Translations under genes and position numbers: made by a program
Notes under the pieces: model-generated
What the model saw: only the letters and a program-made list of their open reading frames with translations
Told to the model about the DNA's origin: nothing
The model's database searches: none
Shown: positions 58,277-59,117 of the stretch, piece after piece
Position numbering within the stretch: the stretch's first letter is position 1
Layout: every line of letters starts with the position of its first letter
IMG/VR virus record: IMGVR_UViG_3300050343_000216
Location: 11,300-75,299 of that record
Source: a virus
Strand: one strand, 5' to 3'
DNA: 64,000 nt

Positions 58277-58635
58277 ACTCTTGAAGAAATTAAACTCCCC
58301 TGTGCTTGTCCTTGTAAGAACTTTGAACGAGAACATATATACCCCACGTTATCAAGAGACTCATTTCGAATAAAAATAGTTACCTTTACTCTTTGTAGAT
58401 AAAGTACTTTGTATATTTTATTATCAGAAGCAAAAGGAATAGGTTTAAACTTTTTGTCTGTTACTTCTATTTCAAAATAGTCTACGTCTTGTCTTTTGTT
58501 GAATAGTAGCATTTCCGTATGTACAATTCCTTCCATGTAGGAAGACTGAAACTCAGGATAAGTAGGCGTCCAAGAGTGGGCACTTGCGTACCCACTACAA
58601 AGAACTAACCATAATGCTATTACTTGGCGATACAA
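58258..58635 (-). CDS. exported single Ig-like domain, PapD-N-like chaperone candidate
   Basis: Signal peptide ASA-H; L.N..F.I.V.D..PF..V.I.I pattern; C-terminal Cys pair. Confidence 0.55.
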   Translation of the reverse strand: MYRQVIALWLVLCSGYASAHSWTPTYPEFQSSYMEGIVHTEMLLFNKRQDVDYFEIEVTDKKFKPIPFASDNKIYKVLYLQRVKVTIFIRNESLDNVGYICSRSKFLQGQAQGSLISSRVCSKIR

Positions 58636-59117
58636 TTAGCTTCTACCAATGCGGTATAAGTTCCGCCTGGAAAAGGACGGTCGCCACCATACTCTGCTTC
58701 TGATTCCATCTCAAACCAAACACTACCGGCAATAGTGAGATCGAACTCAGTTGTATCATTGTACGTTACTTTGTCTGTGTCATAATCTGACATTTGAGTA
58801 TCAGTAACTTCATGCACCGCTGAAGAACCTGACCAAGCAACTACATCGTTGAGGGCAGGGCTAGCTGAGAATGAAGTAGGAGTAGTAATTACTGCTTTAT
58901 AATAGTCTGCGAGAACCACATCATATCGAACAGTAGGAAGAACACCTCCGTCTACCACGGCTGTACTAAGCGTATCGGCGGTAGGGTTTCCATATACTCC
59001 AGAAGTTACTGGTACAACAATACAGTTTCCGTCTACAGTACCGTTAATTGGAACATTTTCCGCACATACGCTTGCTGCAAAAAGTGCAACTGCTGTTACC
59101 ATAAGTTTCTGAAACAT
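58620..59117 (-). CDS. exported fimbrial (chaperone-usher) pilin-like protein
   Basis: Signal peptide; NVPINGTVDGNC N-terminal extension; Gly at -14 with alternating hydrophobic C-terminal strand. Confidence 0.6.
   Translation of the reverse strand: MFQKLMVTAVALFAASVCAENVPINGTVDGNCIVVPVTSGVYGNPTADTLSTAVVDGGVLPTVRYDVVLADYYKAVITTPTSFSASPALNDVVAWSGSSAVHEVTDTQMSDYDTDKVTYNDTTEFDLTIAGSVWFEMESEAEYGGDRPFPGGTYTALVEANCIAK

Follow-up and report, generated by a model that had tools for sequence, protein, structure and literature searches.

Fibres built by donor-strand exchange are thought to need a two-domain chaperone together with an outer-membrane usher. Here we describe a phage gene, T, that encodes an exported pilin-like protein and lies directly next to a gene for a half-size, chaperone-like protein, D. 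T is located in a stretch of 64,000 nucleotides, hereafter the window, that corresponds to positions 11,300 to 75,299 of the IMG/VR record IMGVR_UViG_3300050343_000216. The record is ~75 kb long, is estimated to be 78% complete and comes from an uncultured marine tailed phage. The neighbouring genes form a cassette whose members are called B, C, T, D, E, F and G, T being the subject of this work. An initial annotation, made from the sequence alone, had singled out T as a pilin-like subunit with donor-strand signatures at both ends.

The described systems with which T and D invite comparison differ in their parts. Caf1, the F1 antigen of Yersinia pestis, is encoded on plasmid pMT1 together with the chaperone Caf1M and the usher Caf1A. 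This FGL-type, gamma-3 system has a single type of subunit of ~150 mature residues, and in vitro Caf1 re-polymerises with neither chaperone nor usher present (PMC10628683). FGL chaperones are defined by a disulfide that joins strands F1 and G1 (PMC4133393, Table 2). By contrast, the class 5, or alternate chaperone-usher, major pilins CfaB and CS17 are served by a two-domain FGA chaperone that lacks this disulfide (PMC4133393) and by an usher. In the classical pilin family, a disulfide between strands A and B is the norm (PMC5625045). A full-text literature search returned no description of phage-encoded pilin/chaperone (chaperone-usher) sets.

T is conserved at both termini in a family found in viruses

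A translation check confirmed that the open reading frame (ORF) of T is real, with the limits given in the initial annotation, and placed it on the minus strand with a length of 165 aa (Table 1). A word-index search assigned 634 protein clusters to the T family, an exhaustive HMMER search yielded 77 representatives at 50% identity, all of them close relatives, and a scan of viral contigs located more than 590 viral loci. In a scan of one genome per prokaryotic species, T matched only three short contigs of metagenome-assembled genomes (MAGs). These contigs are 4-28 kb long, are found in bins labelled Melainabacteria, Rhodobacteraceae and Saprospiraceae, and are most likely phage DNA that was mis-binned into bacterial MAGs. 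The T family appears to be confined to viruses. The hydrophobic core and the A-x-A motif of the signal peptide are conserved in the family, with mostly Ala at positions −3 and −1. A role for T as a part of the virion was considered and was rejected on account of this Sec signal.

The initial annotation had likened the mature N-terminus of T to the N-terminal extension of PapA/FimA-type subunits. The mature start and the Cys32 that follows it are as annotated, and the segment showed alternating conservation across 132 homologues. More specifically, I24, G26, V28 and C32 are near-invariant, with entropies of 0.06-0.18 bits, and the most variable positions of the protein include 25 and 27 (2.2-2.7 bits). 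The feature classically associated with such extensions, alternating hydrophobic residues with a small fourth residue, is seen in T as V22, I24, G26 and V28.

The last strand alternates likewise in the same homologues. G152, Y154, A156, V158, A160, C162 and A164 are conserved, and G152, Y154, A160, C162 and A164 are near-invariant. The C-terminal motif reported in the initial annotation was recovered: the Gly is exactly 14 residues from the end, and non-polar residues occupy positions −10, −8, −6 and −4, in the register of the Fim subunits and Caf1. Two departures from the usual pattern were also correctly noted, namely that the penultimate residue is not Tyr, being Ala, and that the second Cys of the mature chain, Cys162, is at −4. 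We then counted the pattern (G at −14, an aromatic residue at −12 and non-polar residues at −10, −8, −6 and −4) in 1,241 distinct, mechanically called ORFs, each 80 aa or longer, that were taken from the window and from 87 loci. It was found in 45 ORFs, all of which are T homologues, and was absent from the about 1,196 others. At the level of sequence, the terminal motifs of T are confirmed to exceed chance.

The predicted fold of T is most like that of donor-strand pilins

T was modelled using AlphaFold2 (AF2) from a 26-sequence alignment. The model had a predicted local distance difference test score (pLDDT) of 87 and a predicted template modelling score of 0.75; residues 31-165 scored above 90. 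It contains eleven strand segments, the first of which spans residues 32-38 and the last residues 155-164. Residues 20-30 had a pLDDT of about 56 and formed no strand in the monomer. An N-terminus that is unstructured yet alternately conserved is the signature of a strand that is buried in a partner, and the data support the view that this segment behaves as a free β strand conserved on one face.

In a Foldseek search of the PDB, the top match of the T model was CfaB of CFA/I (E 4e-4, probability 1.00). Eighteen of the best 50 PDB rows were chaperone-usher pilins, comprising CfaB, CS17, the pilin domain of PapG, FimF/G, PapA, CsuA/B and HdaB, and two further rows were archaeal donor-strand pili. 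The initial annotation had called for a monomer prediction and had expected an immunoglobulin (Ig)-like fold. The prediction returned such a fold, and the nearest solved structures were donor-strand pilins, at a template modelling score (TM-score) of only 0.43; normalised by query, the best pilin matches scored 0.33-0.44. The model thus supports a predicted Ig-like sandwich that is most like donor-strand pilins, the fold match being weak when taken alone.

Of the two conserved cysteines of mature T, one opens the first strand and the other lies at the end of the last. The initial annotation had suggested that they lock neighbouring subunits together. This suggestion is unsupported; a bond within the subunit would be simpler.

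D is a candidate half-size chaperone

The TTG start codon of D lies inside codons 161-162 of T, and D is translationally coupled to T. The AF2 model of D had a pLDDT of 92. According to Foldseek, its best PDB matches are the N-domains of pilus chaperones, namely SafB (E 3.7e-4), PapD, FaeE, Caf1M, FimC and SfaE, with query-normalised TM-scores of 0.53-0.62, for which the 19-residue signal peptide was counted in the query length. Eukaryotic major sperm protein (MSP) domains, represented by VAP and major sperm protein, have the same superfold and were also among the matches.

Residues C101 and C121 of D are invariant. They are located in modelled strands 99-105 (the sixth, F) and 119-123 (the seventh, G), respectively, and the second is followed by S-K. 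Caf1M has a Cys pair in the corresponding strands, followed by I-K, and the cysteines of the two proteins aligned within one column. In a joint MAFFT alignment, D was collinear with chaperone N-domains and matched the conserved Asn of the second strand as well as the D-x-x-x-aromatic-x-C motif of strand F. In the same alignment, the version of D from Vibrio phages, described below, ended in K-L-x-L-Y-W-P, which resembles the K-L-x-x-R-P of FimC and Caf1M. The Cys pair of D is therefore present as in the FGL chaperones, and from its place in the sequence and in the model we infer the F1-G1 disulfide itself. The F-G loop of D comprises about 13 residues, versus an FGL average of 24. PF00345 (PapD_N) matched neither D nor anything else in the record. 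A 98.5% match of the D profile to Caf1M was discarded as circular, Caf1M being a row of the alignment in question.

The first residue of mature D is an invariant His, which is followed by an invariant T-P-T-Y-P. The D analogue of Vibrio phage 51E28.1 lacks this His and extends beyond the last strand. A Cu-only superoxide dismutase was among the fold matches of D (8aca, TM 0.54), and the N-terminal His could be a metal site.

The fold searches with T and D were independent of each other, and a pilin-like T beside a neighbour of PapD fold points to two halves of the same pathway. In our analysis, the arrangement looks like a set of chaperone-usher-type parts in a stripped-down, virus-borne form, for which polymerisation is a proposal.

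Comparison of T and D with known pilus systems

At the sequence level, T did not match any named family. No Pfam, PHROG or NCBIfam match was obtained for T, and Pfam yielded nothing for T or any of 41 homologues even at E ≤ 10. A search of PDB sequences with the T family profile gave a single chance match, BFVD gave nothing clear for T, and tblastn searches with T and with D against 50,697 phage records gave nothing. PF00419 (Fimbrial) had no match in the whole record, and PF05229 (SCPU) had none in 41 T-family members or in the genome. No protein family database names any member of the T or D families. Alignment of T with FimA/I/F/G using hhalign was limited to the signal peptide and N-terminus and was not significant (E 0.0023, probability 13%). 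A local hhalign alignment placed the last 31 residues of T, corresponding to the last two strands, on the equivalent C-terminal stretch of Caf1; the identities coincided with the invariant residues of the T family, at an E value of only 0.24, which is not significant. In a language-model search, the nearest named neighbour of T was a cluster that contains archaic, SCPU-type pilins (0.95; 15% of members SCPU), which we treat as a lead only. Judging from the Pfam, hhalign, SCPU and whole-record PF00419 searches, T fails as a member of a known pilin family.

The resemblances to Caf1 are in size and register. Like Caf1, T is a single subunit type of ~150 mature residues, and T, its Vibrio-phage analogue and Caf1 have in common G at −14, Y at −12, T at −11 and the lack of a penultimate Tyr. 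D has, like Caf1M, the Cys pair in strands F1 and G1 followed by x-Lys, a C-x-K motif. By contrast, T has a Cys pair and Caf1 has none, and D has one domain rather than two, a shorter F-G loop, no N-terminal extension, no equivalent of Arg20 and no significant profile match. Moreover, T and D are phage-borne, and no Caf1A-type usher was found with them.

CfaB and CS17 are the best matches of the T model, are of similar size and have an N-terminal donor strand. Their TM-scores are nevertheless only 0.43-0.47, and their identity to T is about 10%. The subunits FimA, FimI, FimF and FimG of E. coli K-12 share with T the −14 Gly and, at the N-terminus, a hydrophobic-x-Gly-x-Val motif ahead of a Cys, the Gly-to-Cys spacing being +7 in Fim and +6 in T. 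The likeness to type 1 and P pili extends to the predicted folds: T matched FimG, FimF, PapA and the PapG pilin domain, and D matched the N-domains of PapD and FimC. Unlike in those systems, there was no match to PF00419 or PF00345, no penultimate Tyr and no usher, and the second Cys of T belongs to the last strand and not to strand B. Finally, the archaic (sigma) SCPU-type pilins are linked to T by the SCPU-containing language-model neighbour and by CsuA/B among the fold matches, but PF05229 found no match and the Foldseek E-value for CsuA/B was only about 0.03.

A divergent T-D-E trio in Vibrio phages

Vibrio crassostreae phage 51E28.1 (p0041-p0043) and related Vibrio phages have a divergent version of T, D and the next cassette gene, E, that stands by itself behind a large tail gene; the encoded proteins are of 154, 134 and 129 aa. 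The trio of 51E28.1 agrees with that of the window in gene order, sizes, signal peptides, Cys positions and terminal motifs. It differs in that the identity is ~25% and that the flanking genes B, C and G are missing. The profile alignments to the 51E28.1 analogues were weak but full-length (9e-4 for T and 7e-4 for D), and E was matched by tblastn (3e-4). In the T analogue, the corresponding motif is F-x-S-x-V, as far from the Cys as in T itself. The E analogue, when read from an upstream ATG, has a lipobox (LAAC), a lipoprotein signal. Searches with the Vibrio-phage analogues recovered Vibrio-phage relatives only and provided no bridge to a named family.

As a trio, T, D and E occur in hundreds of phages. 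Because B, C and G occur without T-D-E, as described below, and T-D-E stands alone in the Vibrio phages, the trio is the functional core. Phage 51E28.1 is cultured and thus usable as an experimental model.

Proposed function of T

Our preferred interpretation, to which we assign a probability of about one half, is that T is the sole structural subunit of a phage-borne, usher-less chaperone/subunit system related to the chaperone-usher pathway. According to this proposal, T would be exported via Sec to the periplasm of the infected cell, where D would cap the groove of T with its own last strand. An intramolecular Cys32-Cys162 disulfide would staple the first and last strands of T. The N-terminal strand (V22-P-I24-x-G26-x-V28) of the next T would then replace D by donor-strand exchange, giving a Caf1-like homopolymer. 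The usher-less polymer might grow in the periplasm, or might be passed outward or anchored by E, B, C and G. Its role can be guessed at as envelope masking or remodelling of the infected cell, exclusion of other phages or a function near lysis. On chemical grounds, polymerisation without an usher is plausible, given that Caf1 can reassemble unaided in vitro (PMC10628683). The initial annotation had regarded T as a major subunit on the basis of its own ribosome-binding site. The site is present, and the step from it to a major subunit is weak; T is the sole pilin-like gene of the cassette.

More tentatively, and with the odds somewhat against it, lytic marine phages may carry a self-sufficient, usher-independent form of donor-strand exchange, in which D primes T, T polymerises to an envelope fibre or sheet, and E possibly acts as a conduit or anchor.

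Several results weigh against T as a polymerising subunit of such a system. Searches of the record and of five large viral genomes that carry T, among them a complete one of 152.7 kb, gave no usher (PF00577), and a profile search of the record found no secretin, such that the export route is missing. The mean column identity of T is 59-68%, which is unusually conserved for a surface fibre, and T has neither the A-B disulfide nor the penultimate Tyr that are usual in classical pilins. The TM-scores of the T model to its PDB matches are low, at 0.33-0.47, with a root mean square deviation of about 9.5 Å where the score was 0.43, and Ig-like domains of the MSCRAMM proteins SdrE/ClfB and of AP2 mu2 were interleaved with the pilins at similar scores. 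For its part, mature D begins three residues before the first strand and so is without the FGL N-terminal extension, has Thr in place of the anchoring Arg in the x-x-x-Y-P motif, and has the N-domain fold only, without a second chaperone domain. Comparison of D with FimC and Caf1M using hhalign was not significant, and there is no significant sequence or profile link between either protein and Fimbrial, SCPU, Caf1, PapD_N, FimC or Caf1M.

The conservation of T over its whole length suggests several fixed contact surfaces, and T, the only pilin-like gene, always occurs with E as well as D. Both observations would also be expected if T were a chaperone-held, non-polymerising Ig-fold protein of the periplasm or outer envelope that gives its N-terminal strand a single time to another partner (E, C, B or a host envelope protein). 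The outcome would be a defined complex, which might act by receptor blockage or by reshaping the infected cell's envelope, and it would be in keeping with a cassette that encodes no export pore and has other exported members. We nevertheless consider a single donation unlikely: single-subunit donor-strand systems such as Caf1 are known to polymerise, and nothing in E, B or C, judged without structure models, is like an Ig acceptor.

It is more doubtful still that T is a complete, ordinary Ig-like sandwich, for example a binder of envelope glycans or proteins, with generic terminal motifs and a likeness to pilins that reflects the abundance of Ig folds. An ordinary sandwich would account for the low TM-scores to pilins, for the unrelated Ig-like proteins among the matches and for the non-significance of every profile comparison. 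The MSP fold also occurs outside pilus chaperones, in VAP and major sperm protein, and the last of the eleven strand segments of T could pair directly with the first. On the other hand, a generic fold does not sit well with an N-terminus that is unstructured in the AF2 model yet alternately conserved, or with a register that exactly matches Caf1 and Fim. Nor does it fit the neighbour, as D has the Caf1M-like F1-G1 Cys pair and C-x-K and is collinear with chaperone N-domains, and the fold searches on the two adjacent genes indicate both halves of one pathway.

Very improbably, T and D feed, cap or block a host chaperone-usher machine, with phage-made T built in at the host usher as a subunit or terminator, so that host pili are altered or arrested during infection; the cassette has no usher of its own and T has both subunit-type termini, but the family occurs in many phage lineages of open-water samples in which a matching host usher is not assured, and without detectable kinship of T or D to classical subunits or chaperones, recognition by a host usher is doubtful.

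Hundreds of uncultured marine phage genomes, which come in several sizes, and cultured Vibrio phages keep T and the half-size, chaperone-like D together without an usher. If T polymerises as we propose, the minimal machinery for donor-strand exchange would be defined, phages would be seen to build envelope structures in cells that are soon to be lysed, and a part of the very abundant marine viral 'dark matter' would gain a testable function. Next to the chaperone-usher and type V pathways, the system would then stand as a third, minimal way of making strand-swapped fibres, and as the first to be used by viruses. If T does not polymerise, it would still represent a new family of exported phage proteins with a dedicated chaperone-like partner.

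The cassette and its genomic context

The genome of the record is of the siphovirus type, and its minus strand carries terminase, portal, major head, tape-measure, J-like and fibre genes. The cassette is a tight run on the same strand, encoding B (195 aa), C (309), T (165), D (125), E (147), F (74) and G (about 158). The arrangement B-C-T-D-E was retained in 74-79 of the 80 related viral loci. The features of the cassette are summarized in Table 1.

Table 1. Positions of T, its sequence features and the other cassette elements in the window
Feature	Position	Strand	Description	Basis or occurrence
T	58620..59117	−	Candidate pilin-like subunit, exported, 165 aa	ORF, 634-cluster family, AF2 model, PDB fold matches
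Ribosome-binding site of T	59123..59127	−	GGAGA, 5 nt before the ATG; overlaps the TAG stop of C	Sequence
Sec signal peptide of T	59061..59117	−	aa 1-19, MFQKLMVTAVALFAASVCA; predicted cleavage after VCA	Sequence
N-terminal extension of T	59025..59060	−	aa 20-31, ENVPINGTVDGN; candidate donor strand	
Cys32 of T	59022..59024	−	Opens the first modelled strand	131/132 homologues and the Vibrio-phage analogue
C-terminal strand motif of T	58623..58664	−	aa 152-165, GTYTALVEANCIAK; Gly at −14, Tyr at −12, Cys162 at −4	
D	58258..58635	−	Exported one-domain protein of predicted PapD/MSP fold, 125 aa; candidate half-size chaperone	
E	57833..58276	−	Exported protein, 147 aa; third member of the conserved T-D-E trio	76/80 loci
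C	59127..60011	−	Exported, acidic low-complexity centre; upstream cassette member	78/80 loci; relative HTVC115P gp53
B	59938..60525	−	Signal peptide, four-Cys domain, C-terminal hydrophobic tail; first cassette gene	74/80 loci; phrog_20531
G	57121..57597	−	Membrane-anchored coiled-coil protein; last cassette gene	49/80 loci; homologue HTVC115P gp49
Sigma-70 promoter-like site	60586..60614	−	TTGACA-17-TATAAT, 12/12, upstream of B	Consensus match only

In E, two conserved cysteines bracket two Gly-rich amphipathic strands, and a C-terminal helix ends in FEN. The loop between the strands is hypervariable in length and composition across homologues. E might be an outer-membrane-associated oligomer.

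Relatives of B, C and G were found in Pelagibacter phage HTVC115P (gp54, gp53 and gp49, respectively), in Roseobacter phages and in a freshwater podovirus, all of which are without T, D and E. In the podovirus, the relatives of B and C are located just upstream of holin-like and lysozyme genes, and the data hint that the cassette is linked to envelope events around lysis. The database matches of G were limited to weak coiled-coil ones. The Gly-Gly-Ile-Ala-Gly-Leu-rich tail of B and the signal peptide of C share DNA in two frames (59938-60056), the overlap being 74-119 nt depending on the choice of the C start.

An 807-aa protein rich in Ser, Thr and Gly (53814-56237, minus strand) is encoded between the fibre genes and the cassette. 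It had no PHROG match at E ≤ 1e-5, and a relative was found in one of the 80 loci. On the other side of the cassette, a minus-strand gene at 60641-61222 encodes an exported 193-aa protein that has the look of a small outer-membrane barrel, and the gene has a promoter-like site of its own, which includes an extended −10 element. Its homologue occurs in 0/80 related loci, and the gene is therefore not part of the conserved cassette.

Promoter-like sites in the region showed no excess overall compared with shuffles. Two perfect sigma-70 consensus sites (TTGACA, 17-18 nt, TATAAT) bracket the cassette from B to G. The second of these, another 12/12 match (57081-57110, minus strand), heads a DNA methyltransferase gene at 56443-57054.

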